A DNA stretch of 64,000 nucleotides from Dictyostelium discoideum. Its lineage: Eukaryota. Shown here in pieces: positions 2,729 through 55,832 of the stretch. The stretch covers positions 1,888,001 through 1,952,000 of the forward strand of contig CM000153.2 in the NCBI GenBank assembly GCA_000004695.1. The letters run 5' to 3'. Numbering within the stretch: the first letter of the stretch is position 1; each line of letters opens with the position of its first letter. The notes below the pieces were generated by a model, which was not told the origin of the DNA, did not search any database, and saw nothing but the letters and a program-made list of their open reading frames with translations. Made by a program: the position numbers and the translations under genes.

Positions 2729-3852
2729 CATTACTACTATTAACTTTATTTAATAAATTATTACTACTATCACTATCATTTGAATTTGAACTACTACTTG
2801 AACTTGAACTTGAACTACTACTACTTGAACTTGAACCATTTGGTTCATAATTTTTATAATACATATCAACTACTTCCTCTTCAGAATATCCAATTATTAC
2901 CCATTCATCATTAAATGTCATTGTAGATGGGCATGATCTTTTTAAAATAAATAAATAAATAAAAATAAATAAAAAATAAATAGGTTAATTTAATAATTTA
3001 AAAAAAAAATAAAAAATTAAAAAATTATAATTATTTACTCAGTTCTTAAAGTTGTTTGAGCTTTATAATCAGTAAGTAAAGTATTATTAACAACTTCAAT
3101 TAATACAAATGCACTATTATATTCAATTTGAATTTGAGATTTATTTGGTGACATGCAAATACCACAAAGACCTATAGCAATTTTATTTTCATAAACATCC
3201 AATGCAGTTGTGTACATTTGACCTTTACCACCTATACATGGCTTCCAAACTGGTTTTTCTAAATATAATACATTTGAACAATTATTTTTATTTTTATTTA
3301 ACTTTTTTTTTTTTTTTTTAAAAAAAAAAAATACAAATAAATAAAAAAATAATAATTAATATGGTTTTGTAAAATTAATTAAGTTTTTTTTTTTTAAGAA
3401 AAATTAAAATTAATTTACTTACATCTAAAATACAAACTGAAATTGGTGAAGATTTCTTTTTTGATGATAATAAATTATTATTACAACTTGATACAATAAA
3501 ATTTGGGCCAATAGCAATTTGAGAACCAATTGAACATTCGAAATTATCCTTTTCATCAACACCTTCTTGAATAAAAATATAATCACATTTTGTTGAATTT
3601 TCTGAATTATTTTCAACACAATCATCAATATTATATACATAGATTGAACCATTTTCAGATTCATCACCAATTGCACCAATCGTTATATTACTATCACTAC
3701 CTAATGAGGCTCTCCCTAATCCTGTACAACTACCAAATGTTTTACTTGGTTCATTAAACAGTTGAGAAACTTCATATTTATTGTTAAATGAGAATGGTCT
3801 AATTTAATTAATTTTATAATTAATAAATTATGGAAAAAATAATTATGGAAAG

Positions 3853-3933
<81 letters not shown>

Positions 3934-4124
3934 ATAATAATAATTTACAATGTTTTATTTTTTTTAGCTAATAATGTTGCAAATGCCATTTTACTATTTG
4001 GATTTGAACCAATAAGTGCATATCCATTATATTTTGAAGTATTTATTATACCATTACCAATTGACGAAATTGATAATAATAAAATAATTATTAATATTAC
4101 ATATTTATAAATAGTTTTTATCAT
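546..4124 (-). CDS. 5-exon gene encoding a secreted/type-I membrane protein with Cys-rich ectodomains and a Ser/Asn-rich linker (about 1042 aa). It could instead be two genes, 3035..4124 and 546..2921.
   Basis: Exons on the minus strand: 4124..3949, 3798..3423, 3301..3039, 2937..1503, 1424..546. Exon 1 starts MIKTIYKYVILIIILLLSISSIGNG, a signal peptide. Exon 2 (IGAIGDESENGSIYVYNIDDCVENN...SVCILD) is open, has no ATG and is missing from the ORF track; track ORF 3425..3679 is the wrong frame. Donors are GTAAAT, GTAAGT, GTAAAT and GTAAGT, acceptors are AG, and phases match at every junction. The GTAAAT donor lies 2 nt before the stop of ORF 3035..3217 and joins in phase to an AG 16 nt upstream of the ATG at 2921 (ga|a -> E). 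The downstream part has a Cys-rich module (CPAGAEW..CLICDAG..CGLCPGGYY..CGKGEFCPDG), TM helices (YFLIIMGGMIVLTLGLCLPW, YYFLVVLILMIIFIIQF, ITVILFAILDVFWVIEVFV) and many N-X-S/T sites. It has no signal peptide of its own, which supports joining it to the upstream exons. Confidence 0.5.
3853..3931. repeat. A79 homopolymer, T79 on the gene strand, inside intron 1 of the 546..4124 gene
   Basis: Read directly. It fills most of the 150-nt intron between the GTAAAT donor at 3948 and the AG at 3799. Confidence 0.9.
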
Positions 4125-4951: not shown

Positions 4952-6210
4952 CTAGATATTTTTTTTACCTTTTTCATCAGACCACAATTCAAGTTCAACA
5001 TGTGAAGCATAAGGTGGCCATTCTTTCATGAGACCAAATAAATTAGTGAATGGACCAACTGAATCATCATGACCAGAGAAAACGATATATTTGACAGAGG
5101 AAGTACCATTAACAAAAGCTCTAATATTATCGACTACCTCCTCTAAGAAAGTAGACATACCAAGACGAGCAATCATTGGGAAAGAGAGTTGATATTGGTA
5201 TTGCCAATAGGCAGCTTCATAGACTTGAGTGACCATATCTTGAGTGACACCCTCTGGTAATGGGAAATCGTGACATTGAGTTGCAAAGAATAAATCCATT
5301 AATGAACTCCAACCTGGGAATACAGAGATACCCAATGTTTCCATAACATCCTCTTTTAATTGGGTGGTGTTGGTAATGAATTCCCCCCACTCTGGTGTGG
5401 TGGTAGTATTGGCGATCAAAACAGCCAACTCTGGGCAAAGAGTTGGATTTGGTGTCATATTTTCATAATAGTTATCCATTGTATTGATATTGATAATTGG
5501 AATACCTGAACCACTTGTAACGGTGGTTGGTGGGAATAAAGCAGTTAAATGACCTTGAACCGATTGAATGGTTCTTGGTACATCGGTTGAACGAACCCAA
5601 ATGGTTGATGCTGCATCCACTGATAATTCACTTGGTAATAATTCATATTTATCAACGTAGAGTTGACGTAAACTTTGACCTAATTGTAAATGTTGTTGGA
5701 ATCCAAGTGAGGTCAATTGACCGTCTGAACAATTACCTGGGAAATATTCTCTATTTGGCATATAAACTTTTCTAAATAATCTATCAACATCTGTTGCTGC
5801 TCCTGGTACATTATTTAAACTTGATACCATTAACCATCCTAAATTACAATCCCATGTATTCATTGTTGGTTTTAATGTACTATACAATGGTGTTCTATCA
5901 CCATGTCTTGTTAAAATTTGTACCATCTTTAATGTTAATCCATCTGTATTTAAACTTGGTGTCTAAATAAAAATTATTATTATTATTAATTTATAATTTT
6001 CCATTTTTTTTTTTTTTATTTTTATTTTTTTTTAATTTTAATTTCTAGATTTATTTTTATTTGAAATTTATGGAAAAATAAAAAAATAAAAAAATAAAAA
6101 AAGATATTTACTGGTTCTGGTGCTTGGCAATAAAATGGTTTTTGGGATAAAGAAACACCCAAAATTAGTGAAACTAAAAATAATGTTATTAATGCACTTT
6201 TTTTAATCAT
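4663..6210 (-). CDS. histidine acid phosphatase (3 exons, 416 aa, signal peptide)
   Basis: Exons 6210..6112 (MIKKSALITLFLVSLILGVSLS signal peptide, donor CCA|GTAAAT), 5962..4969 and 4820..4663. The RHGDRTP motif (the RHGxRxP signature) and a later GHDDS (HD) motif are present. The last exon joins in phase 1 (g|at = D) and contains a conserved Cys pair. Confidence 0.75.
4941..4966. repeat. perfect 26-bp palindrome, A8-TATCTAGATA-T8, at the 5' splice site of acid-phosphatase intron 2
   Basis: aaaaaaaatatctagatatttttttt equals its own reverse complement. On the gene strand it begins 3 nt after the GT donor, and an A56 run (4893..4948) lies next to it. Confidence 0.85.
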
Positions 6211-6701
6211 TTTTAATCATTTAAAAAAAAAATTTTAAAAAAATAAAAAAGTATTTTAAAAACGATTTTGATGGAAAAAAAAATAAAAAAAAATAAAAAA
6301 ATAAAAAAAAAATTAAAATTAAAAAAAAAATTAAATTAAAAAATAAAAAAAAAATAAAAAATAAAAAAATTTGATTTTTTAAAAATAAAAAAAATAAAAA
6401 AATAAAAAAAAAAATAAAAAATTGCTGTGTTATTATTTTTTATTTTTTTATTATTATTGTTTGTGTGTAAGACAAATCATCTTTTTTATTTTATGTAATT
6501 TTTAATAATAATGAATATAATAGTTATTATTATAAATAATAAAAAGGTTTAAAGATATACTTGTGTGTGTGTTTATTTGCGTTTTTAAAAATTAGTTTTC
6601 TTCATTTTTCATTTTATCCTTTTTTAGAAATTTTGTTCCTTAACCCTGAAGAGGTTTTTTTTTTTTTTTTTTTTTTTTATTTATTTTTTATTTTATTTTA
6701 T

Positions 6702-6733
<32 letters not shown>

Positions 6734-7019
6734 CTGGAAAAGTATAAATTGTGGTTTTTATTTAAATTTTTTATTTTTTTTTATTTTTTTTTTTTCAAGT
6801 TAGAGTTTTATTCAAATACATAATTACAAATAATAAATACACACACACACACCCCACAAATAATATTCAGATTAATTCAATTAATAATTTTAAAGATTTT
6901 AAATATACAAATTTAAATAAAATAATAATATTAATAAAAATAATAAAAAATAATAATAATTAATAATTAATAATTAAATAAATTAATTAAAAATTGATAA
7001 ATTAAATAAATTTAAAAAA

Positions 7020-7769
7020 ATGATTAAAGTGGCAAGTAAAGATCCGATTGTATTCAAAAATAGAAAAGATGCTGGTAAACAATTATTAAATTTTATTAAA
7101 CAAGAAGTAAAAGGATTAAATAAAGAAAATGCAGTAGTGATTGCTCTACCAAGAGGTGGGGTACCAGTTGCCTTTGAAATTAGTAGTGCACTTGATTTAC
7201 CATTAGATTTATCAATTCCACGTAAAATTGGTGCTCAAAATAATCCAGAATATGCAATTGGTGCAGTATCTGAACATGGTGAAGCTTTCATCAATAATGA
7301 ATTGTTGTCATATTCTCATTCTTCAAGAGAATATGTAAAGAATGAAATTGAAAAACAAAGATTAGAATCTCAAAGAAGACAACAAATTTATAAAAAAAAT
7401 AGAAAACCAATTGATTATAAAGAGAAAACTGTTATAATTGTTGATGGTAATTATTATTATTTATTATTATTATTTATAATTTTACTATTCTTTTACTAAC
7501 CTTTTTTAAAAAAAGATGGTATGGCAACTGGAAGTACTGCAAAATCATCAATAAATTCTGTTTTACAAGCAAAACCAAAGAAAATTATCTTAGCACTCCC
7601 AACTGCACCAATTGATTCTTTAGAAGAAATTAAAAATAGTGGAAAAGTTGATGAAATTTTATGTGTTTCAATACCAAGAATCTTTAATGCAGTAGGTTGT
7701 TTCTATGAAACCTTTGACCAAACTGATGATAGTGAAGTAATAGAATTATTAGAAAAATCATTAAATTAG
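7020..7769 (+). CDS. type-I phosphoribosyltransferase-domain protein (2 exons, 226 aa)
   Basis: Exons 7020..7446 and 7516..7769. The donor GTAATT splits the PRPP-binding loop VIIVD|DGMATGST, and the phase-1 junction rebuilds an Asp codon. Track ORFs 7020..7499 and 7521..7769 are the two exons. Confidence 0.7.
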
Positions 7770-8089
7770 AGTGATAGGATTAATGTATACATTGATTTTT
7801 CCTATTTTTTTTTTTTTTTTTAAAAAAAAAAAACAAACCAAACAAGTTTATTTTCATTTTTTTTTTTTTAAAAAAAAAGCAATATTAAGTTAAATGATAA
7901 ACAAAGAAATATTTTTCCAATTCATTAATCCAATAAAATTTTAAATTATAAACATTTTTTTTATTCATATTTTTGTTCTTATTTTTATTTTTTTTTTTTT
8001 TTTTTTTATTAAAAAATATATAATCACCAATTAATCGAGTTGGTAATTTTTTAAAATTTATATTGTTATATTGTTATTTTTATAGGATT

Positions 8090-8090
8090 T

Positions 8091-8152
<62 letters not shown>
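8090..8152. repeat. (ATT)n microsatellite in the 3' flank of the PAP2 gene
   Basis: Read directly. It is the source of the spurious ORF 8063..8278. Confidence 0.9.
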
Positions 8153-8153
<1 letters not shown>

Positions 8154-8159
8154 TAATTA

Positions 8160-9120
8160 TTAAAGACTACTTGAAATTGAAAGACTTTGATATTCAGCAC
8201 TCAATAAACCATCTCTTGCATAGTGAGGATTTATTCTATTCTTTGGTAAAGAACACTCTTTTGAAAATAATGAATTAAAATTCATGAAATAAACAAAAAC
8301 ACCAATTGATAAACCAATAACAGATCCTGCTAAAATCTATTTATTATTTATTATAATTAATATTGGGTGAGAAAAAAAAAAAATGGAAAATAAAAAAAAA
8401 AAAATGGAAAATAAAAAAAAAAAAAGGTGGGAAATAAAAAAAAAAAATAAAAAAAAAAATTTTAATATGAAAAATACTTACATCAGAAAAATCATGATGA
8501 TAATCAACAGTTCTTGAAACAGCAACTAAAGCAGATATCATAAATGGACAAAGACAAACTAATGCTTTTAAAATATTACCACCATCTTTTAGGAAAACTT
8601 TAGTTTTACCACAAAGATAGAATGAGAGAAAAGTCATACCACAAAATGAAACTGAAGAATGACCAGATGGGAAAGATACACGACCCTCTCTAATGACAGC
8701 TTCGATACCAGTTGCAACACGTGCACCGTAATCTGGACGGTAACGACCAGCACTAACTTTTAAAATGTCAGTGAATAGCATTGTGATTGTGAATGCTTGA
8801 AATAAACCTAATGCTGCGTGATGGAAGTCATGTGAATTTCTATTCTTTATATAATATCCAATGAATACTACCATTGGTAATCCAAGTGCAATTAACATTA
8901 GTAACCAAACTGGCACAATGTCTGGTAATAATGGATATTGAACTAATTGAAAAGTATTGGTTGATATATTTGATTCTGGTTCATAACGTTTGAATGGTGG
9001 AATTACAAAATTAAATAAAACACTCTCAATTACAAATATACCTAAACAAAGAAACCAATCAATTAAATGCTGTTTGGTGAACCATGTAGTTTTACCATAA
9101 AATGAAACTCTGTGAATCAT
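8160..9120 (-). CDS. PAP2-family lipid phosphate phosphatase (2 exons, 271 aa)
   Basis: Exons 9120..8482 and 8336..8160. All three PAP2 motifs are present: KVSAGRYRPDY, PSGHSS and SRTVDYHHDFSD. The donor GTAAGT follows HHDFSD, and exon 2 supplies the sixth TM helix (ILAGSVIGLSIGVFVYF). The tail of track ORF 8344..9120 is intron read-through. Confidence 0.75.
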
Positions 9121-28861: not shown

Positions 28862-31800
28862 ATGAGAAATGAGCAATTAGAACAAAAAAAACTAATTAAA
28901 GAGAATTGGTCACAAGAATTGGTTTCAGGTGAGGTAGTTAATATTATATCAGCTCGTTGGTTAAAACTTTGGAAAAATTATGTAAAATATGATGACAATA
29001 CCACATTAAACAGTTCAAATACAACACCACTAAATTGTTCAACTACCACTAGTACCACTACAACTACTACTACAACTACCACTGCGACAACTAACAATAA
29101 ATCAGTTGAAGATAATAATAATAGTAGTGCCAATAATAATAATAATAATAGTATTCAATTTGATTCAGCAAAACCAGAATCAATAGATAATAGAGAGATT
29201 ATAGAAGGTAATGATTCAGAGGGTGAACCAATTGTTTCAAAGAGGGTGACAGAGAAAGAGGATTATGAAATTATACCAAATAGAGTTTGGAAACTTTTAG
29301 TATCATGGTATCAAGGTGGACCAGAGATAAAGAGAAAAGTGGTTGAATTGGGTGTAAGAAATGAATTGTATGTTGAAGTTAGACCACTTCTAGTTGGTGT
29401 AAAATATCATCAATCTCTAATCAGTGAATTATCAAAACTACCACCATCATCAACCTCAAACAATTCCACAAAAGAGTTTTTATTTCAAAAAAGTTTAAAA
29501 TCATCTCTAAGTGAATTAAGAGAATATATTGGTAAAGTTGAAAACATTGATCCAATGAAATTAGTTTTTTACAATAATAACAACAGTAATAGTGGTTCAA
29601 TAAAAATCAAACCAATTAAAAGAGATTATTTAACATTAGAAGATTTAAAATTTGAAAATTCAAGTCAACTAATTTTACATTTTCAACCAAATAATAATTG
29701 TCATAGTAGTAGTAATTCTTCATCATCAGCGTCGTCATCAGATCAATCTTCTTCACATCATAATCCAAAATTAATGAATAAAATTAGTAAAAAGATTGGT
29801 AATATTTTTAAAAAGAAAACACATCCTGGTAGATCTTATTCAGATCCATCTTATTATCAAAATAATGGAAGTAGTAACAACAATAATAGTAATGGTAATG
29901 GTGGTAATAATGGTAATCAAAGTGGTGGAGCAAGTACAACTAATGGTGGTATGAATATAAGAGATAATAGTTCAACTAGTAGTACAAGTAGTTCAAATTC
30001 AAATGAAAATTCACCAACTTTTGAACAAAATGGATCAACTAAAGAGTTGATTAGTAATGGTAAGGTTTGTGGTTTATCAAACCTTGGTAACACTTGTTTT
30101 ATGAATTCATCAATTCAATGTTTAGCTCATACAGGACCATTGGTTGAATATTTTCTTAGTGGTCGTTATTTAGGTGATATTAATAAAACTAATCCGTTGG
30201 GTATGAAAGGTCAAATCGCAGATATCTATGGTAAACTAATGAAAGATATGTGGAGTGGTTCAAGTTGTGTAGCACCAAAACATTTGAAATGGATCATTGG
30301 AAAGTATGCACCACAATTTAGTGGAATCTCTCAACAAGACAGTCAAGAACTACTCTCGTTCCTTTTGGATGGTTTACACGAGGATTTGAATAAAGTAATA
30401 AAGAAACCCTATCAAGAGGAGAAAGATGAACCAAAGGAACCACGTGAAGACATTGTTGTCGCCAATGAACAGTGGGATAATCATATTAAACGTAATCAAT
30501 CGATCATTGTCAATCTCTTTCAAGGTCAATATAAATCAACATTGGTTTGTGCAAAATGTTCAAAAGTTAGTATCACCTTTGACCCCTATATGTTTGTCAC
30601 TCTACCCATACCTGTACCAACCGAGAGACTATTCGATGTGTTACTCTTTCGTAGGAAGCCACAAATGGGTTCAGAAGCATTGGGTCCTGACCCAAATGGT
30701 ATCTACTGTCTAAACAATGCAATGTCACCAATTAAATATTGTCTAAAGCTACCAAAACGTGAAGATGTAGAAACTTTACGTGTTGAACTTTCAAAGATCG
30801 TTGGAATTGAATCATCTTGTATTGCATTGGCTGAAACTTTCAAAAATAGAATCTACACCTTTTTAAATGATCAAAAGAATCTCATCTCCATCAAAGATAA
30901 AGATGTTACAATAGCCTATGAATTACCACATGCTGGTGATGATATCTCAAGAATTCATGTTATGCATAGAAAAAAGAATGATCTGACCCTACTTCCTTAT
31001 GTATTATTATTAAATTATTCTGAAACAACTTGTAAAGATTTATATAGGATGGTTTGGGAACGTGTTGGTCATAGAGTTAAAAAAGGTTGGAAATCTGCAT
31101 TAAAACAAAAACTTTCAAAAGAAAATATTCAATTACCAAATAATAATAGTAATGAAGAAAATGAAAATATAAATAATACTAATAATAATAATACAAATAA
31201 TAATACAAATAATAATACAAATAATCAACAACAACAACAACAAGATATTTTATCAAATTTTGAAAAAGATAGTCATATTAGTACAAATGATGAAATGTTT
31301 GAAGAAGATGATACATCATCAGTTACAGATGATGAAATGTTTGAATCAATTTATCCATTTATATTGAAAACAACCAATGGTTATGGAAATCATTGTGATC
31401 GTTGTCCAAATGGATGTACTGGTTGTCCAGTGGAATGTAATGATAAACCTTTACATTCACTCTATAAGAATCCAAAATATTGGCGTGAAGGTTGTAATAA
31501 TCTAACCATCGATTGGAGACCAGAGATTTTAAAGTATATCGATTTCACAGAACATGACGATCCAAATTCACCATTCACCGTTCAAGATAAGAGTATTCAA
31601 TTGAAAACCGAATTTAGAAATGAAATCACCTTGAATGATTGTTTACAACTTTATACAAAGAGTGAAAAACTCGGAACAAACGATACTTGGTATTGTCCTC
31701 AATGTAAAGCTCATATAGAAGGTTCAATGAAGAAATTGGAATTATGGAGTGCTCCAAAGATTTTAGTGGTACATTTGAAACGTTTCCATTATGTTCATGG

Positions 31801-32131
31801 CCATCGTCATGAGAAAATTAATGCTTTTGTCGATTTCCCGTTGGATAATCTTGACATTTCACAATGGGTACTCAATAAATCAAATCCTCCTCCGATCTAT
31901 CAATTGTATGCTGTCTCCAATCATATGGGTGGTATGGGTTCTGGTCACTATACCTCTTGTATTAAAAATAACAAAGATCAATGGTATTTAATTAGTGATT
32001 CCTCTTATCATGCTATCGATAAATCAAAAGTTAAAACTTCTGATGCCTATGTATTATTTTATGAATTAAAACAACAACCACCACAACAACCACAATCATC
32101 CCAAAATGCTTCAATACATCCAATAAATTAA
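28862..32131 (+). CDS. ubiquitin carboxyl-terminal hydrolase with DUSP, UBL and USP domains (USP4/11/15-like; single exon, 1089 aa)
   Basis: The N-terminal DUSP domain reads SARWLKLWKNYV..VWKLLVSWYQGGPEI. The Cys box is GLSNLGNTCFMNSSIQCLAHT, followed by QQDSQELLSFLLDGLHEDLN, and the His box is GHYTSCIKNNKDQWYLISDSSYHAI..AYVLFYEL. Confidence 0.85.
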   Translation: MRNEQLEQKKLIKENWSQELVSGEVVNIISARWLKLWKNYVKYDDNTTLNSSNTTPLNCSTTTSTTTTTTTTTTATTNNKSVEDNNNSSANNNNNNSIQFDSAKPESIDNREIIEGNDSEGEPIVSKRVTEKEDYEIIPNRVWKLLVSWYQGGPEIKRKVVELGVRNELYVEVRPLLVGVKYHQSLISELSKLPPSSTSNNSTKEFLFQKSLKSSLSELREYIGKVENIDPMKLVFYNNNNSNSGSIKIKPIKRDYLTLEDLKFENSSQLILHFQPNNNCHSSSNSSSSASSSDQSSSHHNPKLMNKISKKIGNIFKKKTHPGRSYSDPSYYQNNGSSNNNNSNGNGGNNGNQSGGASTTNGGMNIRDNSSTSSTSSSNSNENSPTFEQNGSTKELISNGKVCGLSNLGNTCFMNSSIQCLAHTGPLVEYFLSGRYLGDINKTNPLGMKGQIADIYGKLMKDMWSGSSCVAPKHLKWIIGKYAPQFSGISQQDSQELLSFLLDGLHEDLNKVIKKPYQEEKDEPKEPREDIVVANEQWDNHIKRNQSIIVNLFQGQYKSTLVCAKCSKVSITFDPYMFVTLPIPVPTERLFDVLLFRRKPQMGSEALGPDPNGIYCLNNAMSPIKYCLKLPKREDVETLRVELSKIVGIESSCIALAETFKNRIYTFLNDQKNLISIKDKDVTIAYELPHAGDDISRIHVMHRKKNDLTLLPYVLLLNYSETTCKDLYRMVWERVGHRVKKGWKSALKQKLSKENIQLPNNNSNEENENINNTNNNNTNNNTNNNTNNQQQQQQDILSNFEKDSHISTNDEMFEEDDTSSVTDDEMFESIYPFILKTTNGYGNHCDRCPNGCTGCPVECNDKPLHSLYKNPKYWREGCNNLTIDWRPEILKYIDFTEHDDPNSPFTVQDKSIQLKTEFRNEITLNDCLQLYTKSEKLGTNDTWYCPQCKAHIEGSMKKLELWSAPKILVVHLKRFHYVHGHRHEKINAFVDFPLDNLDISQWVLNKSNPPPIYQLYAVSNHMGGMGSGHYTSCIKNNKDQWYLISDSSYHAIDKSKVKTSDAYVLFYELKQQPPQQPQSSQNASIHPIN

Positions 32132-38791: not shown

Positions 38792-38997
38792 ATGATAACA
38801 CCTACTTCATTTGAACCAGTTGAATTATTATATTCAAAAAAAAAAGTAAATAGAACAAATTGGAAAAAAAATGTATTAAAATCAAATCCTGAAATTAACA
38901 ATTTATGGTAAGTTTTTTTTTTTTTTTTTTTTTTTTTATATGTTTTATTATTTTTTTTTTTTTTTTTTTAATATTCATATATTTATTTATTTTATAA

Positions 38998-39038
<41 letters not shown>

Positions 39039-40732
39039 GAAAGAATTTATCCAATAAATAGAGCAATTCAATTTGGTAAACAATTTCATCCAGGTAAAGC
39101 AGAAGTTAAACAAAAATTGGATAAAACAGCGATAATACAATTAATATTACAACATTTATCAACCAAAGGATTGAAACAAACCAAACAAACCTTGGAGAAG
39201 GAAGCAAGAACCACTACACCGATAGTAGAGGGATTAAATGAGAGTAGATTGGTTACATACATTAGAAATGCATTAAAGGATACAGATAGGATCTATGATT
39301 TATCGATGGAACATACAGAGTATAGTAAAGAGGAGAGACAATCAAAGATAACGGAACGAGAGGAACTACTATTTCAAATGGATTTATTGGAGGATGAAGA
39401 CGAAGATGACGGAGTCAACATATGGGATGAACCAACAGAGAATATCATCACAGAGAAAGTACACACCACAGAATACGATATAAATAAAAGCAAAGAGAAT
39501 AAAGATGATCAAGACGATGAAGTGGTTAAATTTGCATCATTGAATAAATTGGTGGAACATTTAACACACGACTCAAAGCATGATTTACAATTCTTAAAAA
39601 CCTTTTTAATGACCTATCAATCGTTTTGCACACCAGAGAAGTTGATGTCAAAACTCCAACAACGTTACAACTGTCCATCGGGTCATGACGAGATGGCCAC
39701 TAGAAACATCCAAATTAGGGTCATCAATGTGTTGAAAGGTTGGGTGGACAATTATTACTCGGATTTCGATGATAAATTAATTGCAATGTTACGTACATTC
39801 ATCGACCAAATTCAAATTAAATTCCCCGCACCTGCAAGTGCCGTCAATAAATCCCTAACAAAGATGGTGGAGAAACTCTCACCAGTGAACGATAGCAAAC
39901 ACATTTTCAATGAGAAAACACCCGAACCAATGGTACCAAAGAATATCTTCTCCAATAATCTCTCAATATATGATATCGATGAGGAGGAGATCGCAAGACA
40001 ATTGACTTTAATCGAATTTGAAATCTATAGAAACATTAAACCACCCGAACTCTTAAATCAATCTTGGAATAAAACAAAACTAAAATCACGTGCTCCAAAC
40101 GTTTTAAAGATGATCGATCGTTTCAACTCCGTTTCAATGTGGGTGGCCACAATGATCATTCAAACCACAAAAGTTAAAGCACGTGCTCGTATGATGACTC
40201 GTTTCATAAAGATCGCAGATCATTTGAAAAATTTAAATAATTACAATTCCCTTATGGCAATCATCGCTGGTCTTAACTTTTCCTCGGTTTATCGTCTAAA
40301 GTATACTCGTGAAGAGTTATCCGCTCAAACTATGCGTACCTATTCCGATTTAGAAAAGATTATGAACTCTGAAGGTTCCTTTAAAACCTACAGAACTCGT
40401 CTTCAAAATGTTCCTCCAATGTTACCTTATTTGGGTGTTCATCTAACCGATCTCACTTTTATCGATGAAAATCCAAATAATTTCGTCACTGACGTTGGTG
40501 GTAAACAGGTTAGTCTAATCAATTTCACAAAGAGAACCCTAGTTTTTAAAATCATCTCTTTGATTCAAGAAACTCAAGTCGTACCTTACAATCTTCAACC
40601 AGTTCATCAAATTCAAGAGTTTTTATTAAATATTAGAAGTGATCTCAAAGCTCATACTCTCGATCAATATCAACAAGAATTATATAGAGAATCACTTAAA
40701 AGAGAACCAAAGAAAGCTCAAAGATCTGATGT

Positions 40733-40739
<7 letters not shown>
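38792..40739 (+). CDS. Ras guanine-nucleotide exchange factor with a LisH motif (2 exons, 605 aa)
   Basis: Exons 38792..38907 (donor tg|GTAAGT) and 39038..40739. The LisH motif is AIIQLILQHLSTKGLKQTKQTLEKEA. The RasGEF N-terminal (REM) region (FASLNKLVEHLT) and the Cdc25-homology catalytic domain (IARQLTLIEFEIYRNIKPPELL..NFSSVYRLK..GVHLTDLTFIDENPN) follow. Confidence 0.75.
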
Positions 40740-40999: not shown

Positions 41000-41680
41000 A
41001 TGAAGATTTTTATAAGAGGTAAAGGTTATTATATGGGATTGGAAGAAAAGATAGAGTTAAATGTTGAACCAATAGATACAATACTAAAATGTAGAGAATA
41101 TACTGGTGGTAATAAAACATTTTTCGATAGGGAAGGTAGATTATTAGGTTTATATGAGCAGTTTCAAAGTAGTGGTTTAAAAGAAGGTGATACAATTGAC
41201 ATTTGTTCATTTCCATTAGAGATTGCTTTTCTAACTTTTATATTACAAATACTTCAAGTTAAAGGAAATAATCATTTAGAAATAAATAGACTTAGAACAA
41301 AATTATTCAATAAAACTATTGATAATAAAATATATTCATCTCAATTAGATAAAATGAAACATTTATTTAATGATAGAGGTAATTTTCTTATAAAAAAACA
41401 AAAAAAAAAAAAAAGAAAGAATCATATTTTATTTTAAAAATACAATTAATTAATAATTAAATATATATATCATTTTATAAAAATAAAAGTGCCAAATGAT
41501 ATTTTAGAAAATGTATATTCAGATTATATTAAATATGATAGTATAGATAGGGATCCACTTCACCACTTTATAAAAAGAGTTTTTAATGTTAATAAAAATA
41601 ACAAACAAATTTTAGCTTCACCGAAATTAATTTCTCAAAAAGATGTTATAGATTTAGATAATAATAATAAAAATAAAAAT

Positions 41681-41758
<78 letters not shown>

Positions 41759-42109
41759 AATAATAATACTAATAGTAATGCAGGTTCAAACTCAATAACG
41801 GATGAAGAAGATGATCTAACTCAACCAGAGGGTGACCCTATTTTATTATTAGAGTCCAGCAATACTATACAAACAGAACAAACAGAACAAATACAACAAC
41901 AATTAATGAAACCAATGGAGGATATCACATTTGAGGTTATATTGGATGATGGAAAGAAATTTATATCACACAATAAAGAGCTTTTGGATAAATTAAAAAA
42001 GATTGAGGAATTAAATTGGACTTTAGCAAGGATAGTATCTGCTAAAGTTACTATATTACCAAAAACTGTAATTTTAAGTAATAACATTAGTAGTAGTAAT
42101 AGTAATAAC

Positions 42110-42182
<73 letters not shown>

Positions 42183-44341
42183 CACAAACATCTCCAAACC
42201 TAAAACAACAAATATCACCAACTAAAACAACAACAACGACAACTAATACAACATCCACAACAATAAATAAAATAAATACACCAACTAAAGATATTTCTTG
42301 TTTAAATATATCCACACCAAAAACAACATATAATATAAATAATACACCACCATCAGCTTTATCAATAAATAGCGCAAATTCGATAAGTTCAGTAAATTCA
42401 GTAAATTCAGTAAATTCATCATTTAATTACAACATTGAAGGTGTTGATGACGAATCAACAGATTTGGAAGATAATGATCAAGTATTTACTGATACAGAAG
42501 AAGATGAAAATGATCGTTATAAGGTTAATAATAATTTAGAAAATTCATTTAAACGTGAGCTTACAGAAGTTATTAGATGTGATACTGATGATTTTGAAGT
42601 TTATAAGAGATCTAAAAATGGTGATGATGTGGTTATATCTTCTCAAAGCTATACTTATAATTCAGCATCACAACCATTACCAACAACAAATGAATTGACA
42701 ACACCACAAATATCACCAAATAGTTCAACTTCAATGGTACCCGCCACCACCACCACCACCACCACCACCACCACTAATACTACAACAACAAAAACAACAA
42801 CATCTCAATTAACACCAACTAAAAAGAATTCATTACCAATTTTAAATTTTGATAATAATATACCAATTAATGGTGATATTAGAAAAGCTATTGAATCAAA
42901 TAATGAAAATAAAATAAAAGAGAAAAAATATAAACCAACATTTCAAGGACAACCAGTTTCATTTTTATTGGCTCTATATGAATTACGCGCAACACAAGAT
43001 ACTCATTTCAATTTAGAAGATGTAAAAGCAGAGGCACAGAAATTTACAGATGTTGAAGTTCGTAACCGTGATAGAAAAGGTGATAATGCATTTCGTAATG
43101 CATTATCTATGTTATCTCAATTAATCTCTAGAAAATTAATTAATTTCGTTAGGGAGGAAGATTTATATTTGACTAAAGAAGGTTGGGATTTTACAAAACC
43201 AATTTATCCATATATGCAAGATTTTAAAGAATTTACAATGATAAATAAAACAAAAATGGATTTGGCTCAAGATAAAGTAATGATTCTCGTTGATAGTTGT
43301 GAAAATTTCAAATCCGATATATTAAGAAATCTTCGTGAGAAAGGAATTTTTTGTATGGAGATGTCTTTACCTTCTAGTGATTTCTTATTTGTGAAATATA
43401 AAGAGGGATTTCAGGATGACATAAAGAATTTGGAGTTTTATCCATACTTGTTTGAAAGAAAGACTTGGAGTGATTTCAATTCATCAAGAAAGGATACTAG
43501 AAATATTCGTCAAAAATCAAAAATGAAATCTTATGATAAAATTAAAAAATCATTTTATATCATCGAAGGTGATGAAATATTACAAACTAATTTACCAATG
43601 GATACATTGAAATGTCATTTGGATCAATATACACTAATGGAAGGTTTTACAATAATTAGATCACAATCACTTATCGATACATGTACCCAACTTGCAATCG
43701 TTGCAAAATTATTATCTGACGACCCACATTTATCAACTAGGGATCAAGATTCTATGTGTAATCTATTGGAATTTAGAAATCAAGTTTTAAATTCAAGAGG
43801 TGGTAATACAAAAGAATCTTATGACCAATTTCAAGATGAAACTAGATCCGTTATAATTTCAAATTCAAATATGGGTGAAATGATTAGAGTTTCAATTTCT
43901 AAAGAACAATTTAAAGAGTACATATTATCACCACTCTATAGAGAAACTGTTAAATCCAAATTGGATGATTTTTACAATGAAAGGAAATTATTACTCTTTG
44001 AATCATATGAATCATTAAGAAAAGAAATTTATTCTCATCATAATCTTTTATTTAAAGGTTTTTTAACTTCCGTTGAAAAAGGTTTAGATATTAGTAATAT
44101 TGGTTATCGTTCAGAGAATTTATTACTTTCCGATTACATTGATAATCAAACTATAAGTTATAATCTACTTCATATTTTATTAACATTTGATTTTCAAACA
44201 ATTACACATTTTAATCAAGCAACATTATCAAATATCAGAAGTACTTCAACTTTAAATTCAATTGTTCAAAGTTGTTTAGATTTTCCAAATCCATCAACAA
44301 CTGTTTATAATAAATTAATTGCAAAACCAGTTGGTAAATAA
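41000..44341 (+). CDS. ubiquitin-like domain fused to an ERCC4 (XPF/MUS81-type) nuclease domain (2 exons, 1076 aa)
   Basis: Exons 41000..41378 and 41490..44341. The phase-1 junction g+tg gives V, and the exon-2 ORF is listed from a GTG start. The N-terminus MKIFIRGKGYYMGLEEKIELNVEPIDTILKCREYTG is ubiquitin-fold-like (compare [23 protein letters not shown]). The C-terminal half carries the ERCC4 motifs VMILVDSCE (VDxRE with Arg replaced by Cys), SSDFLFV (GDF), LFERKTWSD (ERKx3D) and FYIIEGDE, with long poly-N/Q/T linkers between. Confidence 0.6.
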
Positions 44342-44444: not shown

Positions 44445-47400
44445 TTAAAAACATTTTCTATGAACAATTCCTCTACCAACTTCATCATATTCTTGTTTTG
44501 TAATCCATTGATCCGAAAAAGTTTTAAGATCACCTAAAACCGAACCACCACACCAAACACTAATATCACGATTTGGTGGTGCATTAATTTTAATTTGGAC
44601 TTGAGGATTTGAAACTAAAAGTTCCATTTCTTTTTGTAAACGTTTTTCAAAACCTGTTGCCATTGTTGAACCACCAGAAACTACAATATTTTTATAGAGA
44701 TCACGACGAATATCAATATCACAAGAGGTGATAGTTTCATTTAAGAGGTGATGAATACCATTTTGATCTTTACCTAGTACTGAAGGGTCAAAGAAAGCTT
44801 CATAACAACGGAATCTTTCTTTACCAATGGTTAAAACTTGTTTATCGGGCATCGTATAATCCTTGAGTATATTATTATCCTCTGGAGCATTCATAGAGGC
44901 ATAGAAATCTTGAGAGACAAATGAAGTTTTCTCTTTGATATCACGTACGATTTCTCTTTCGGCGGTTGTAGTGAAAGCATAACCTCTTTCAGTGAGTAAA
45001 CGCATTAAATACTCTGTGATATCACGACCACCGATATCGATTCTTTTAATTGCATGTGGAATAGAATAACCTTCATAGATTGGCACGGTATGACAAACAC
45101 CATCACCACAATCCAATACGGTACCAGTGGTACGACCAGATGCATACAAAGAGAGAACGGCTTGAATTGCTATATAAACTGCAGGAGTATTGAAATATTC
45201 AAACATTGTTTCGACCATTCTTTCTCTGTTCGCTTTTGGATTAAGTGGTGGTTCAGTTAATAAAACTGGATGTTTTGAAGCATCGACACGAAGTTCATTT
45301 GTGAATGTATATTCCCAAAGTGCTTCCATATCATTCCAATTGGTGATGATACCATGTTCAATTGGGTATTTAATATTGAGAATACCACGTTTAGCTTGAG
45401 CTTCATCACCAATGTATTTATCTTTACCCATACCATGCATAACTGAATTGAACATTGGATAACCAATGATCGATGGGAAAACACATCTTGGAGCATCTTC
45501 ACCAGCAAATCCTGCTTTAACCATACCACTACCATTATCGATAACCAATGTTTTTTCAGTGATTTTTTGAAAGAATTCAGCACGTGAACTTTTGGCTTTA
45601 ATTGATTCTTGATATTTTGCAAATGATGGTGGTTCTGGAATATTTGCTGCTTTGGCATCTGCATAGTTTTCAATGACAGCGGTCGATTTAACTGGTGGAT
45701 TAAATGATAGATCAGAGGTTTGTTTCCAAAGTTTATCCATTTCATCCTCTTCAGACTCGGTTGAAGCAACTTGTTGTTGTAATGGTACATTAATGATTGA
45801 AGGGAATTTTGGTGGAGCTTTCTCTTTCTCTAAAATAAAGAATGTCCAAGCTTCAGAACGAATTGGTTGATTTTCATAATAAACCATAACACCATAACCA
45901 CCAGCAACCGTTGGAGTATAGGTAGCAGTGAAAGTACCATCATTGTTATTCTTTATATCACCATGAATTTGAATTCCAGGTGGACCCTGTACAAATACAT
46001 AAAATCTTTGACCTGGTGGCAATTTTCCAGCCTCGATTGGATTACCTTTACTAGTACGAGCAACAATTGTAAATGTTGATAAAACACCAGGAGAACCAGT
46101 TTCTAAACCAGGTCCATATGCTTCACATTTCAATGGATCGACTAAATCTAAAGCACCAACGGAAATAGTTGGTGCTTCATCAATGTTTGATATATGTGGT
46201 TGTTGATCACCAATTGGTGTATTTTGTAAATAGATAGCAATTGCATAACCACCAGCTTTTGGTGGTGTATAAGTTACATTGTAAGTACCATTTTGTTGAT
46301 CGACAACTTTTCCATATAATTGATCACCATATTGACCTTGAATTAAAACATTAAATGTTTCACCACCTTTTGTATGTTTATTACCTTTGGCATCATATGC
46401 CTGTATTATAAAACTACATTCTCTACCAACAATACCTTTCTTTAAACCATCACCACTAACTTTACATTGTGATGCTTCAGCAATACCAATACTTGGGATA
46501 TTATTAATATTTGGAAATTCTAATTTAGTTGTGGTGGTGGTGGTTGAAGTAGTACTTATATTTGATGTTGGTGGTGATGGAAATTGATCAATAGTTGCAG
46601 TCGATTCTTTTGGTACTGATGGGAAATCCATTAATAAATCATCATTACCACCGCCACCACTACCATTTGATGGTGCAGATGGAAATTGTTCAGCTAAAGA
46701 AGTTAAAGTGAAATCAGGAATACTTTGTTGTAAATCAACTAAAGGTGGTAATGCTGGAGTATCCCAGGCTACATTATGTTTCTTTGCAATATTACTAAGA
46801 TAATAGTTTACCAATGATTCTTCAGGTGGTTTATTTGATAATCTATGTACAATCTTTGGATTGATACAACAACAATCTATACATTCCTCTGGGAATTTTT
46901 TACCAAATTTTTCAATTAATCTCTTTCTAATCTTATATAATTCAACTTGTTTATCTAAATATGGTGATGCAAATATAATACTACAACATGCTTCTTTTAA
47001 ATCTGGTGGGCATACCCTTTTTTTTTAATTTATAAAATAAATTTAAATTAATTAGTTTTGGAAATATTAAGAGTGAGTGGAGTGGTGTTATCATTAATAT
47101 TGCTTACTTTACACCTTCAATTCCTCTAATTCTATTTGCTAAAGTTTCACAATAAATAATTAAAATACCTAAAACTTCAGTGTGATAATCTTCATTAATA
47201 ACTGAAACCGTTCTAACTCTTGCTTGTTCTTCTTTACCTAATTGTAATAATTCTGCAATCTCTTTTTTATGAACATTACTTTGTTCAAAATTTTTATTTT
47301 TATGTAATACCAATCTACTATTTGCTAATTTGAGTAACATACTCCTATTATTTATATAAATAAAATAATCAATTATAATTATAATTAATATATTATTAAT

Positions 47401-47985: not shown

Positions 47986-50051
<2,066 letters not shown>

Positions 50052-51161: not shown

Positions 51162-52857
51162 TTATGACATAAAGAAACTTTCTTGAGTATCATCCAAAGA
51201 TTTTCTATCATCAACATTTTTAAGACCATTATAACCATTTTCATGTCTACAAACATCTTCAATTGCTTCAAAGATTTTCCATGACCATTCTTGATATTTA
51301 ATATCACCTACAAAAAAAAAGATATTAATATACTACTAATTTACAATTATTACTAAAATTATAATTAATTAAACATACCTGTTAAACGATATAAAATGAA
51401 TAATGATTCAACAGTTTCAGGACGTAAAATATACCAACTATATGTACCATGAACATTCCAACTAATATTACCAGAATCTGGATCGACACGGAATGATTCA
51501 GGAGCTAAACCAGATGGTGAAGTTAAATAAGTTTTTACGCAAGTTTTAGTTATCATTTCACCAACTTCCATATACTTAGCAGACTTTTTATCATCTTGAG
51601 TAATATTTGCAGCGGCAGCTAATGCAAACATACCACCAGCGAAACAAGCTAAATGTTCTTGAATGTTGGTTAGAGAGTTATGATCCATGGCTGAAAGGTA
51701 ACCATCACCTTTTGGGGAAACTTTGTACAAATGTTCAATGATAGAATCAGCAGATTCAACAAATAGACGTCTATAGATTTCGTCTTCACCATTTGTATAA
51801 ATCCACATCTTTAAGAGATATTCATAATAGGAATCACCTAAACCACCAATTGTAATAAAACTACCACAGAAACCATTTGCGTCTTGATTTACAAAAACTG
51901 GAAATAGACCTGGAATGTTTGGTTTCAATTTGGAGAGAGCATCAATCACTCTATCAGAGTATTCCTTATACTTTGGATCACCTGATATTCTTGAAAGTTC
52001 ATTAAATTCTAAAAATAATGTAGATACTTCTGATAAAATTACACAACCGCCAGTCCAACCTGGATATGTCTTTCCATGAGTTGCTAATCTAATTTGTGAT
52101 GCTGGGAATGGATTTTTAGTGTCTTTTGGGAATGCATATAATAATAAATCACCAATCTCTACTGCTTTCTCTAAATACATTTCATCATTTGTTAATCCAT
52201 ACATTGTTACATGTGATCCTAAAACTCTAATAATCGTTTCAAATACTGAAACTGCCATTCCCTTTTTTTTTTTTTTTTAAAAAAATTAAAATAAAATAAA
52301 AATTAATAAACATAAACCTTAAAACCATAAATATAAATCTAATATAAACATACAGTATTTTTAGATTGTTTTAATACATTAGCAACCCAATCTCTACCTT
52401 CTTTATATTCTTTATCTAAATTCATAATTTTAAGAGTATCTAAAGAATCAATAATTGTTAGACCAAGACCAAACCATTCTTTATGACTTTTTGTTAATGG
52501 TCTTAATTCATCTTGACCCCATGCAAATTCTTTATATTTTTCCCATGCATGTTTCATTGCTCCTCTAACTTGTTCTGATCTTTTAATATTTAATTTTTCA
52601 TTTTGATAATATACTTCATCAATTTTATTATATGGATTTCCTGTTTCAATTGTATTATTAATATTATTATTATTAATATTATTATTATTATTATTATTAT
52701 TGTTTGTATTATCTTTTTTTTGAATTACATTTTTCCATTTTTCAGGAATTGTATGAGCATCGATTTTATTTGTTCCTTCAAAACTAAAAATCGTAGATAT
52801 ACCAATAAGGAAAGCTACAATTACAATTGCAAGAAACAGTTTGATTTTTGTGTCCAT
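51162..52857 (-). CDS. GH47 alpha-1,2-mannosidase, paralog 2, cut short by a premature TAA 35 codons before the expected end; possible pseudogene
   Basis: Exons 52857..52354, 52261..51379 and 51307..51162. The structure matches paralogs 1 and 3, but codon GAA (the E of SETLKY) is TAA, giving minus-strand atg tca taa at 51170..51162. The reading frame stays homologous down to the ancestral stop near 51057. Confidence 0.55.
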
Positions 52858-54328: not shown

Positions 54329-55832
54329 TACCACTAATTTACTATTATTACTAAAATTATAATTAATTAAACATACCTGTTAAACGATATAAAATGAATA
54401 ATGATTCAACAGTTTCAGGACGTAAAATATAAAAACTATATGTACCATGAACATTCCAACTAATATTACCAGAATTTGGATCGACACGGAATGATTCGGG
54501 AGCTAAACCAGATGGTGAAGTTAAATAAGTTTTTACGCAAGTTTTAGTTATCATTTCACCAACTTCCATATACTTAGCAGACTTTTTATCATCTTGAGTA
54601 ATATTTGCAGCGGCAGCTAATGCAAACATGCCGCCAGCGAAACAAGCTAAATGTTCTTGAATGTTGGTTAGAGAGTTATGATCCATGGCTGAAAGGTAAC
54701 CATCACCTTTTGGGGAAACTTTGTACAAATGTTCAATGATAGAATCAGCAGATTCAACAAATAGACGTCTATAGATTTCGTCTTCACCATTTGTATAAAT
54801 CCACATCTTTAAGAGATATTCATAATAGGAATCACCTAAACCACCAATTGTAATAAAACTACCACAGAAACCATTTGCGTCTTGATTTACAAAAACTGGA
54901 AATAGACCTGGTATGCTTGTTTTCATTTTGGATAGAGCATCAATCACTCTATCAGAGTATTCCTTATACTTTGGATCACCTGATATTCTTGAAAGTTCAT
55001 TAAATTCTAAAAATAATGTAGATACTTCTGATAAAATTACACAACCGCCAGTCCAACCTGGATATGACTTTCCATGAGTTGCTAATCTAATATTTGATGA
55101 TGGGAATGGTTTTTTAGTGTCTTCTGGGAATGCATATAATAATAAATCACCAATCTCTACTGCTTTCTCTAAATACATTTCATCATTTGTTAATCCATAC
55201 ATTGTTACATGTGATCCTAAAACTCTAATAATCGTTTCAAATACTGAAACCGTCATTCCCTTTTTTTTTTAAAAAAAAAAAAAATAAATTAAAATAAAAT
55301 AAAAATTAAAAAACATAAACAATAAAACCATATATATATATCTATTACATACAGTATTTTTAGATTGTTTTAATACATTAGCAACCCAATCTCTACCTTC
55401 TTTATATTCTTTATCTAAATTCATAATTTTAAGAGTATCTAAAGAATCAATAATTGTTAGACCAAGACCAAACCATTCTTTATGACTTTTTGTTAATGGT
55501 CTTAATTCATCTTGACCCCATGAAAATTCTTTATATTTTTCCCATGCATGTTTCATTGCTCCTCTAACTTGTTCTGATCTTTTAATATTTAATTTTTCAT
55601 TTTGATAATATACTTCATCAATTTTATTAAATGGATTTCCTGTTTTCTTATAATTTTTATTATTATTATTATTATAATTATTATTATTATTATTTTGAAT
55701 TACAATTTTCCATTTATCAGGAAATCTTTGGGCATCGATTTTATTTCTTCCATCAAAACTCAAAATAGTAAATATACTAATAAGGTAAGCTACAATTGCA
55801 ATTGCAAGGAACAGTTTGATTTTTGGGTTCAT
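54017..55832 (-). CDS. GH47 alpha-1,2-mannosidase, paralog 3 (3 exons, 537 aa)
   Basis: Exons 55832..55353, 55259..54377 and 54267..54017. It carries the same signatures as paralog 1 with an intact C-terminus ([37 protein letters not shown]). Read-through into the intron adds a false tail to track ORF 55269..55832. Confidence 0.75.

Follow-up and report, generated by a model that had tools for sequence, protein, structure and literature searches.

Structure-specific nucleases are dangerous, and how phosphorylation, SUMO and ubiquitin control them is under active study. To our knowledge, the systems studied so far rely for this control on separate proteins, among them SLX4, Esc2 and the SUMO-targeted ubiquitin ligases (STUbLs). 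One locus of Dictyostelium discoideum AX4, at positions 41000-44341 of a 64,000-nt stretch of the genome (called the window below; GC content 23%), raises the question of whether a ubiquitin fold can be built into the nuclease itself. A sequence-only reading of this locus had proposed that an exon encoding an N-terminal ubiquitin-like (UBL) domain is spliced to a second exon encoding an ERCC4 nuclease domain of the XPF/MUS81 type. We conclude that the gene probably belongs to a conserved family of MUS81 paralogues, which it represents in D. discoideum, and encodes the catalytic subunit of a UBL-coupled structure-specific endonuclease. The gene structure, the identities of the domains, the conservation of the fusion and that of the catalytic residues can be read directly from the sequences compared. 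The predicted layout of the protein comprises, in order, the UBL, a helical module, low-complexity linkers, a conserved mid-module, a winged helix (WH), the ERCC4 domain (its active site intact) and a family-specific C-terminal helical module.

Structure of the gene

On the forward strand, exon 1 (41000..41378) begins with an ATG at 41000 and encodes amino acids (aa) 1-126 together with the first base of codon 127, up to a GT donor at 41379. The intron (41379..41489; 111 nt, GTAATT...AAAAG, GT..AG) is of phase 1 and contains two in-frame stops, and exon 2 (41490..44341) provides a 950-codon open frame encoding aa 127-1076 and closed by a TAA at 44339-44341. The predicted spliced product has 1076 aa. 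Re-reading the sequence confirmed the coordinates and strings given in the sequence-only reading, including the exons, the phase-1 intron and the 950-aa exon. Over positions 41000-41906, the only stops in the coding frame are those at 41435 and 41447, both intronic; the remaining two frames have 29 and 49 stops. GC content is 29% in the part of exon 1 that encodes the UBL, 14% in the upstream spacer and 8% in the intron.

The earliest in-frame ATG of exon 2 corresponds to residue 266 and is preceded by 138 open codons without a start codon. These codons are conserved, and exon 2 alone cannot therefore provide the start of a protein without losing them. With a hidden Markov model (HMM) of homologue N-termini from which the query was excluded, query aa 48-166 aligned unbroken across the exon junction with 25.7 bits, a score reached by none of 1000 shuffles; the head of exon 2 scored 20.0 bits by itself. 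The intron lies 16 residues ahead of a conserved [YF]-D and just 5' of the DPxxH[FY] motif. The annotated 1234-aa gene of Polysphondylium violaceum and the merged model of the Heterostelium album gene described below both have a phase-1 intron at the equivalent codon (in the former at L005:487-578), and that of Acytostelium subglobosum P0018 lies at most one residue from the position of the query intron. On the basis of the open frame, the ATG-less head of exon 2, the junction-spanning profile alignment and the conserved intron, the UBL exon and the ERCC4 exon very likely form one gene with the predicted splice junction.

There would be no fusion if the 145-aa open reading frame (ORF) at 41000-41437 were a separate small UBL gene, with the ERCC4 gene starting downstream. 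The unspliced frame does end with a stop at 41435, the GC content of the terminal part of exon 1 drops to 15-18%, and the equivalent UBL region of H. album is annotated as a separate 149-aa gene. Such a gene-model artefact is nonetheless highly improbable, given the 138 ATG-less open codons of exon 2 in a genome in which about 9% of random codons are stops, the continuity of the homologue profile over the junction, the single-protein models containing a UBL in A. subglobosum, Synstelium polycarpum and P. violaceum, and the conservation of both the position and the phase of the intron. The protein collection searched contained no exact match to the spliced model, to the 145-aa unspliced ORF or to models starting at M266 or M269, and in the 64-kb window tblastn detected no further copy of the gene.

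The N-terminal ubiquitin-like domain

The UBL domain, presumably of the beta-grasp type, is encoded by positions 41000..41233 (+ strand) and covers aa 1-78, ending with DTIDICSFPLEIAFL and without a Gly-Gly. The pairwise likeness to ubiquitin on which the sequence-only reading had relied was not borne out: an HMM built from nine classical UBL sequences gave the query N-terminus 3.1 bits, which is not above chance (shuffles up to 7.1 bits), and Pfam yielded no ubiquitin match for the D. discoideum sequence itself. The ubiquitin-like identity is confirmed indirectly. Query aa 1-82 matched, over the full length, a profile of six other dictyostelid N-termini with 13.0 bits, a score that none of 2000 shuffles attained (maximum 6.5), and ubiquitin scored 19.7 bits against the same query-free profile, again unmatched in 2000 shuffles. 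A 7-sequence UBL profile (A3) retrieved 412 PDB sequences, the best 60 of the 412 being ubiquitin, ubiquitin variants and UBLs, with an E-value of 2e-4 for a single ubiquitin. With a 13-sequence profile (A5), 309 PDB sequences were retrieved, the best 60 of which were likewise ubiquitin, variants and UBLs; a single 76-aa ubiquitin obtained E-values of ~3e-6 to 1e-5 and RUB1 one of 2.4e-6, and ubiquitin residues 10-68 were covered. Pfam ubiquitin (PF00240) matched four of the seven dictyostelid members (best E 3.6e-4), and Rad60-SLD (PF11976) matched three of the seven weakly (best E 0.002), less strongly than the ubiquitin matches. The significance of the UBL assignment thus comes through homologues, since the family profiles match ubiquitin and the query belongs to the family, and not from pairwise likeness. 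Models of ubiquitin and UBLs are silent on the D. discoideum sequence taken alone and positive through its family, and the ERCC4 model matches the query directly (see below).

It could be argued that the N-terminal domain is an unrelated, family-specific module resembling ubiquitin by chance, as the direct comparison with ubiquitin is non-significant, the Pfam ubiquitin model is silent on the D. discoideum sequence and the structure model is poor. We consider this explanation very unlikely, because the 7- and 13-member profiles retrieve ubiquitin and UBL chains (with E down to ~3e-6 for single ubiquitin), the query-free profile favours ubiquitin over every shuffle, and Pfam ubiquitin matches not only the four dictyostelid members but also P0025 and P0024, two of the distant relatives described below. 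None of the members has a Gly-Gly, and the D. discoideum domain (...ICSFPLEIAFL) runs straight into the helical module. From the lack of a Gly-Gly and this direct continuation, the domain is predicted to be an integral UBL, and not a cleavable or conjugatable modifier.

The nuclease domain and its active site

The ERCC4 nuclease domain (43289..43693, + strand; aa 727-861) was recognised by Pfam PF02732 with 75.5 bits (cut-off 24) and an E-value of 4.9e-21, so the ERCC4 signature reported in the sequence-only reading is not spurious. Pfam detected the domain in all nine family members examined. Its motifs are VDSCE (V727-E731), SSDF (S755-F758), ERKTWSD (E782-D788) and YIIEGDE (Y816-E822). The motif table also agrees with the earlier statement that the metal-binding and catalytic Asp, Glu and Lys residues are all kept: D728, E731, D757, E782-R783-K784 and D788 are present in D. 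discoideum, as is E819.

Relative to the (V/I)DxRE and GDXnERKX3D motifs, the D. discoideum sequence departs at two positions, R730C and G756S. The change from GD to SD is specific to D. discoideum among the family. H. album, A. subglobosum, S. polycarpum and P0012 retain the Arg of VDxRE; this position is occupied by Q in P. violaceum and T. lacteum and by Q, K or H in animal relatives. The same Arg-to-Cys change (VDTCE) is found in P0023, a protein with the full canonical MUS81 architecture (HHH_8, WH, ERCC4 and EME1-MUS81_C), which suggests that the Arg is dispensable in at least some MUS81 lineages. The Cys to which attention had been drawn is present; because the position is variable among relatives, the change is weak evidence either way. 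The acidic residues and the Lys are kept across the family except in P. violaceum P0016 and, partly, in A. subglobosum P0018. The loss of the active site in the tandem P. violaceum paralogue implies that these residues are under selection where they are kept, and the D. discoideum nuclease is predicted to be active.

A profile of nine family sequences was compared with all PDB sequences. It matched MUS81 catalytic chains with an E-value of 7e-12 and archaeal XPF and Hef with 5e-7; at E≤10 it matched no EME1, ERCC1, FANCM or FAAP24 chain. The region of aa ~607-700 (42929..43210, + strand) is a predicted MUS81-type winged helix, because positions 5-99 of the profile of alignment A1 coincide with the PF21136 (MUS81-like_WH) stretch as read in canonical MUS81-like proteins among the profile matches. 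Pfam gave no direct match to PF21136 on the query. In a second AlphaFold2 model, of low confidence (predicted local distance difference test, pLDDT, 39), the winged-helix region has the expected order helix-strand-helix-helix-strand-strand.

Conservation of the fusion in Dictyostelia

An exhaustive HMMER search over 1.84 billion representative sequences retrieved 775 relatives; word-indexed protein searches, in an index that seems to lack D. discoideum-group orthologues, returned only T. lacteum P0001 or nothing for the last 472 aa, the first 183 aa and a 2-sequence profile. The close relatives were all dictyostelid and included T. lacteum DLAC_10303, H. album PPL_06570, P. violaceum and one EukProt species. 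A. subglobosum has two family genes, and S. polycarpum has two tandem genes and a fragment. The UBL N-terminus is common to the orthologues of Polysphondylium, Heterostelium, Acytostelium and Synstelium, and the annotated N-termini of A. subglobosum P0015 and S. polycarpum P0013 and P0017 align to exon 1 of the query.

In two species the UBL was recovered upstream of the annotated gene. In H. album (GL290988.1), a 149-aa gene at 5412-5945, on the same strand and 56 bp 5' of PPL_06570 (6001-8598), encodes the UBL domain. Merging the two into exons 5412-5616, 5701-5907 and 5987-8598 gives a 1007-aa product collinear with the family, with a joining intron of 79 nt (GT..AG); from their sequences, the 149-aa gene and PPL_06570 look like one gene split by annotation. 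The annotated start of A. subglobosum P0018 (XP_012755691, DF837580.1) falls inside the helical module. Two unannotated exons in the kilobase upstream of this model (L004, ~3600-4000) encode the UBL, with a phase-1 intron placed as in H. album. The analysis has thus exposed gene-model errors in both H. album and A. subglobosum.

P. violaceum (AJWJ01000130.1, L005:36-6229) carries a tandem pair of family genes. The upstream, 1234-aa gene has a UBL and an intact active site, and splicing at L005:487-578 reproduces the annotated 1234 aa. The downstream paralogue, P0016, has no UBL and its active site is degenerate (E to T, GD to GN, ERK to ERI). As judged from these sequences, the pair could form a heterodimer of a catalytic and a non-catalytic subunit, like MUS81-EME1.

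Relatives outside Dictyostelia

The dictyostelid UBL HMM matched the extreme N-termini of long, non-dictyostelid MUS81-like proteins with E-values down to 1.6e-15. This best value was obtained for P0025, a 1724-aa protein from assembly GCA_001039355.2, which we take to be that of the brachiopod Lingula anatina. P0022, P0024 and P0037 were also matched, as were Pecten maximus P0021 and Mytilus coruscus P0020 and P0161, and a second UBL-bearing group, with compact genes, contained P0035, P0064 and P0134. At the end of their UBL the long MUS81-like proteins share the signature I-[IL]-E-[TS]-x-S-N-P-[FL]; the UBLs of the family have an extended first hairpin, R-x-K-x-x-Y. Pfam recognised ubiquitin (P0025, 8e-5), MUS81-like_WH and ERCC4 in the long relatives, together with ubiquitin-interacting motifs (UIM; P0025, 5e-12), RanBP2-type zinc fingers, RING, B-box and zinc knuckles encoded further 3'. 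The UBL of P0025 scored 22.7 bits, against a curated Pfam cut-off of 25.4.

In a neighbour-joining (NJ) tree based on the ERCC4 domain only, the dictyostelid proteins formed one clade with 74 of 100 bootstraps and the lophotrochozoan-type proteins another with 97 of 100. A single origin of the UBL-bearing proteins would rest mainly on the specific similarity of their UBLs. The UBL-WH-ERCC4 order is no accident of Dictyostelium, and its relatives are full of predicted ubiquitin-binding and ubiquitin-ligase modules. The new architecture offered as one possibility in the sequence-only reading therefore stands as a fusion within one gene that is absent from canonical MUS81, XPF and EME1, but not as a unique oddity, since it recurs in Dictyostelia and beyond. 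The accompanying suggestion that ubiquitin-dependent recruitment may be built into the protein is strengthened by the UIM, RanBP2-type zinc-finger and RING domains of the non-dictyostelid relatives.

Distinction from canonical MUS81 and EME1

The published mus81 knockout of D. discoideum, which targets DDB_G0276519, has no cisplatin phenotype (PMC2730050). Because the published mus81 is a different gene, the gene at 41000-44341 is a MUS81 paralogue and not canonical mus81. The window itself contains counting factor 60 (cf60), as an ORF on the minus strand (4955-5926) with a protein 100% identical to AX4 cf60 and 89-99% identical to its counterparts in sister strains and species. Judging by dictyBase numbering, DDB_G0276519 presumably lies on a chromosome other than that of cf60. 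The UniRef automatic name of the H. album relative, "Crossover junction endonuclease MUS81", and the rank of MUS81 as best PDB match would suit a canonical D. discoideum MUS81 orthologue with lineage-specific decorations. This is extremely improbable, however, as the mus81 knockout was made in DDB_G0276519, the query matches human MUS81 weakly (E 0.004), HHH_8 and EME1-MUS81_C are undetected, unlike in canonical matches, and the dictyostelid family forms its own clade in the ERCC4 tree.

The C-terminal helical module (43850..44275, + strand; aa 914-1055), defined by the family alignment and containing QFKEYI..P.YR ... SYNLLHI, stands where MUS81 carries (HhH)2. Its HMM matched all dictyostelid members and, weakly, the bivalve relatives (P0021, 8e-6), and a profile search of the PDB gave no match for this module. 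EME1-MUS81_C and HHH_8 were not detected by Pfam in the nine family members at E≤10, and when hhalign compared the module with canonical MUS81 C-termini, the alignment was limited to the end of the nuclease domain, with nothing significant beyond it.

An alternative reading of this locus is a non-catalytic partner of the EME1/Mms4 type, pairing with canonical Mus81 or another paralogue. EME1 and Mms4 proteins diverge fast. Surveys list an MMS4/EME1 match in Dictyostelium, giving no details (PMC5381635), and this listing would fit such a partner. The R-to-C and G-to-S changes in two motifs of the D. discoideum protein would also fit, as would the paralogue pair of P. violaceum with its one degenerate member. 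Against this, the acidic and Lys catalytic residues are all retained, the family profile matches catalytic chains of MUS81, XPF and Hef and no EME1 chain at E≤10, and a MUS81-type winged helix is present. Relatives also occur in animals, which are expected to carry canonical EME1 as well. We therefore regard an EME1-like role as unlikely, and a catalytic MUS81 paralogue remains the preferred reading.

Other modules and neighbouring genes

Between the UBL and the winged helix lie two further conserved modules. The helical module (41258..41614, + strand; aa 87-168) spans the intron and includes the motif DPLHHFIKR (aa 148-156); a profile search of the PDB gave no match for it. The mid-module (41921..42076, + strand; aa 271-322; FEV..x..KLKxIEexN...LP), defined by the family alignment, is confined to dictyostelids, and its HMM matched P0014-P0018 with 75-89 bits. 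Searches with phmmer of single modules against the homologues gave nothing at strict database size. Pfam matches to mSLOG at aa 254-309 (18 bits, cut-off 27) and to DUF1967 on the query were rejected as noise.

A poly-Asn linker (41660..41767), a second Asn tract (~42100-42180) and a Thr tract (~42745-42800) were read from the sequence, all on the + strand. Poly-N, poly-Q and poly-T low complexity is typical of Dictyostelium coding sequence. Of the two features previously singled out as non-canonical, the UBL is indeed absent from canonical MUS81, XPF and EME1, but the linkers are ordinary Dictyostelium low complexity.

A hydrophobic-acidic C-terminal tail resembling a SUMO-interacting motif (SIM) occurs in seven of ten dictyostelid proteins (nine relatives and the query), examples being INLDDDD, IVDLDE, DIIDLNDD, IFIDED and NPIELD. 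D. discoideum has no such tail, and carries an internal DVIDLD at aa 178-183 (window 41531-41548); T. lacteum has VINLEDDD near its N-terminus. An additional 3' exon for the acidic tail of the other species was considered for D. discoideum and rejected, as the neighbouring gene lies only ~100 nt from the stop codon.

The neighbouring genes were assigned from their translations only. Upstream, positions 38940-40739 (+) probably contain a C-terminal RasGEF exon, and a RasGEF gene also lies near the tandem pair of P. violaceum. Downstream, the gene at 44445-46814 (-) encodes a putative filactin-like, actin-domain protein with filamin-type repeats and converges on the query gene, their stop codons being ~100 nt apart. 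Further along the minus strand, an ORF of ~295 aa is present in tandem copies (48430-49314, 51365-52258 and 54363-55256) that resemble class I alpha-mannosidase (GH47) in their motifs; two of the three copies share 287/298 protein identity, and the repeat units have ~91% DNA identity over ~2.2 kb. A 1089-aa ORF at 28862-32131 (+), with a GLSNLGNTCFMNS Cys-box and a C-terminal His-box, reads as a ubiquitin-specific protease, from translation alone.

Proposed function and significance

The protein would be the catalytic subunit of a structure-specific endonuclease whose targets are branched DNAs (flaps, forks and nicked junctions, for example). It would dimerise, as do all XPF/MUS81 enzymes, the candidate partners being itself, a degenerate paralogue (as in P. 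violaceum), Mus81 or Eme1. The UBL most likely acts as a permanent handle for docking or regulation. Its ligands would be ubiquitin receptors (UIM, UBA or NZF proteins, the proteasome or p97 adaptors) or, alternatively, partners bound much as Esc2, through its SUMO-like domains, binds and stimulates Mus81-Mms4. Such binding would tie cutting to sites of replication stress marked by ubiquitin, or to the turnover of the enzyme. Nuclease activity, the dimer partner, the substrate and the binding target of the UBL are the parts of this scheme that we infer.

Several observations weigh against this proposal. The Cys in place of the VDxRE Arg and the Ser in place of the GD Gly could each lower activity in D. 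discoideum. The (HhH)2 domain, which in MUS81-type enzymes normally mediates dimerisation and DNA binding, was undetectable in the family by Pfam, hhalign and PDB profile searches. To the silence of Pfam ubiquitin on the D. discoideum N-terminus must be added an unreliable single-sequence AlphaFold2 model of the UBL (pLDDT 34), in which the strand-strand-helix...strand order is compatible with a beta-grasp fold; both AlphaFold2 models (pLDDT 34 and 39) were made without deep alignments. The gene models of T. lacteum P0001 and P0012 lack a UBL, and the ERCC4-only tree does not unite the dictyostelid with the animal UBL-bearing groups. Regular-expression scans found no UIM-like or other ubiquitin-binding motif in the dictyostelid members. 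The family may nevertheless be tied to ubiquitin signalling, a link that, because of this last result, rests on the distant relatives.

A full-text literature search found no description of a UBL-ERCC4 or UBL-MUS81-like protein. The D. discoideum gene itself is certainly in the public AX4 annotation, and the conserved MUS81-type family with a built-in ubiquitin fold is apparently uncharacterised. Routine annotation would probably miss the fusion, because Pfam is silent on the D. discoideum UBL and below its cut-off in relatives. A MUS81-type nuclease carrying its own ubiquitin fold would point to a direct coupling of ubiquitin and nuclease, an idea that gains weight from the UIM, NZF and RING domains also carried by the animal relatives.

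The UBL-WH-ERCC4 proteins may even represent an old, hitherto undescribed third MUS81-type lineage wired directly to ubiquitin signalling; Dictyostelia, lophotrochozoans and some protists would have kept it, and yeasts and vertebrates would have lost it. We advance this broader scenario tentatively, as a real possibility. In that case the Dictyostelium protein could act as a backup for Mus81 and Xpf, and this might be one reason why the mus81 knockout is not sensitive to cisplatin. Dictyostelium is open to genetic manipulation and withstands DNA damage unusually well. Given the lack of a cisplatin phenotype in the mus81 knockout (PMC2730050), this second MUS81-like gene is a candidate for redundancy.

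Comparison with known systems

Canonical MUS81 has the same succession of a winged helix and an ERCC4 domain with a D...E...GD...ERKxxxD active site, and is the best match to the family among solved structures. It carries HHH_8 and EME1-MUS81_C, neither of which was detected in the query family; the latter possesses instead a UBL, the helical module, the mid-module and a C-terminal module of its own.

Integral N-terminal UBLs are known from Rad23, Dsk2/ubiquilin, Ddi1 and parkin, in which they dock proteasomal or UIM/UBA receptors or autoinhibit the effector. The query likewise has an N-terminal, integral UBL without Gly-Gly fused to an effector. It differs from these proteins in that the effector is a predicted DNA endonuclease, and in that the UBL of the family bears the R-x-K-x-x-Y hairpin and the IxE[TS]xSNP[FL] signature.

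Esc2 acts in trans on Mus81-Mms4, which its SUMO-like domains bind and stimulate (PMC5224511). Esc2, Rad60 and NIP45 also provide a non-conjugatable ubiquitin fold working with a MUS81-type nuclease; the resemblance of three of the seven family UBLs to Rad60-SLD is weak. As compared by sequence alone, the query differs from these proteins in having the ubiquitin fold in the same polypeptide as the nuclease, and the UBL of its family scores higher on ubiquitin and NEDD8 models than on SUMO-like models.

The long MUS81-like proteins of bivalves, a brachiopod and other eukaryotes have the same UBL-WH-ERCC4 order, the same UBL signature and a weak similarity in the C-terminal module. They differ from the dictyostelid proteins in their length (675-2440 aa), in the absence of the dictyostelid mid-module and in their additional UIM, RanBP2-type zinc-finger, RING, B-box and zinc-knuckle modules.

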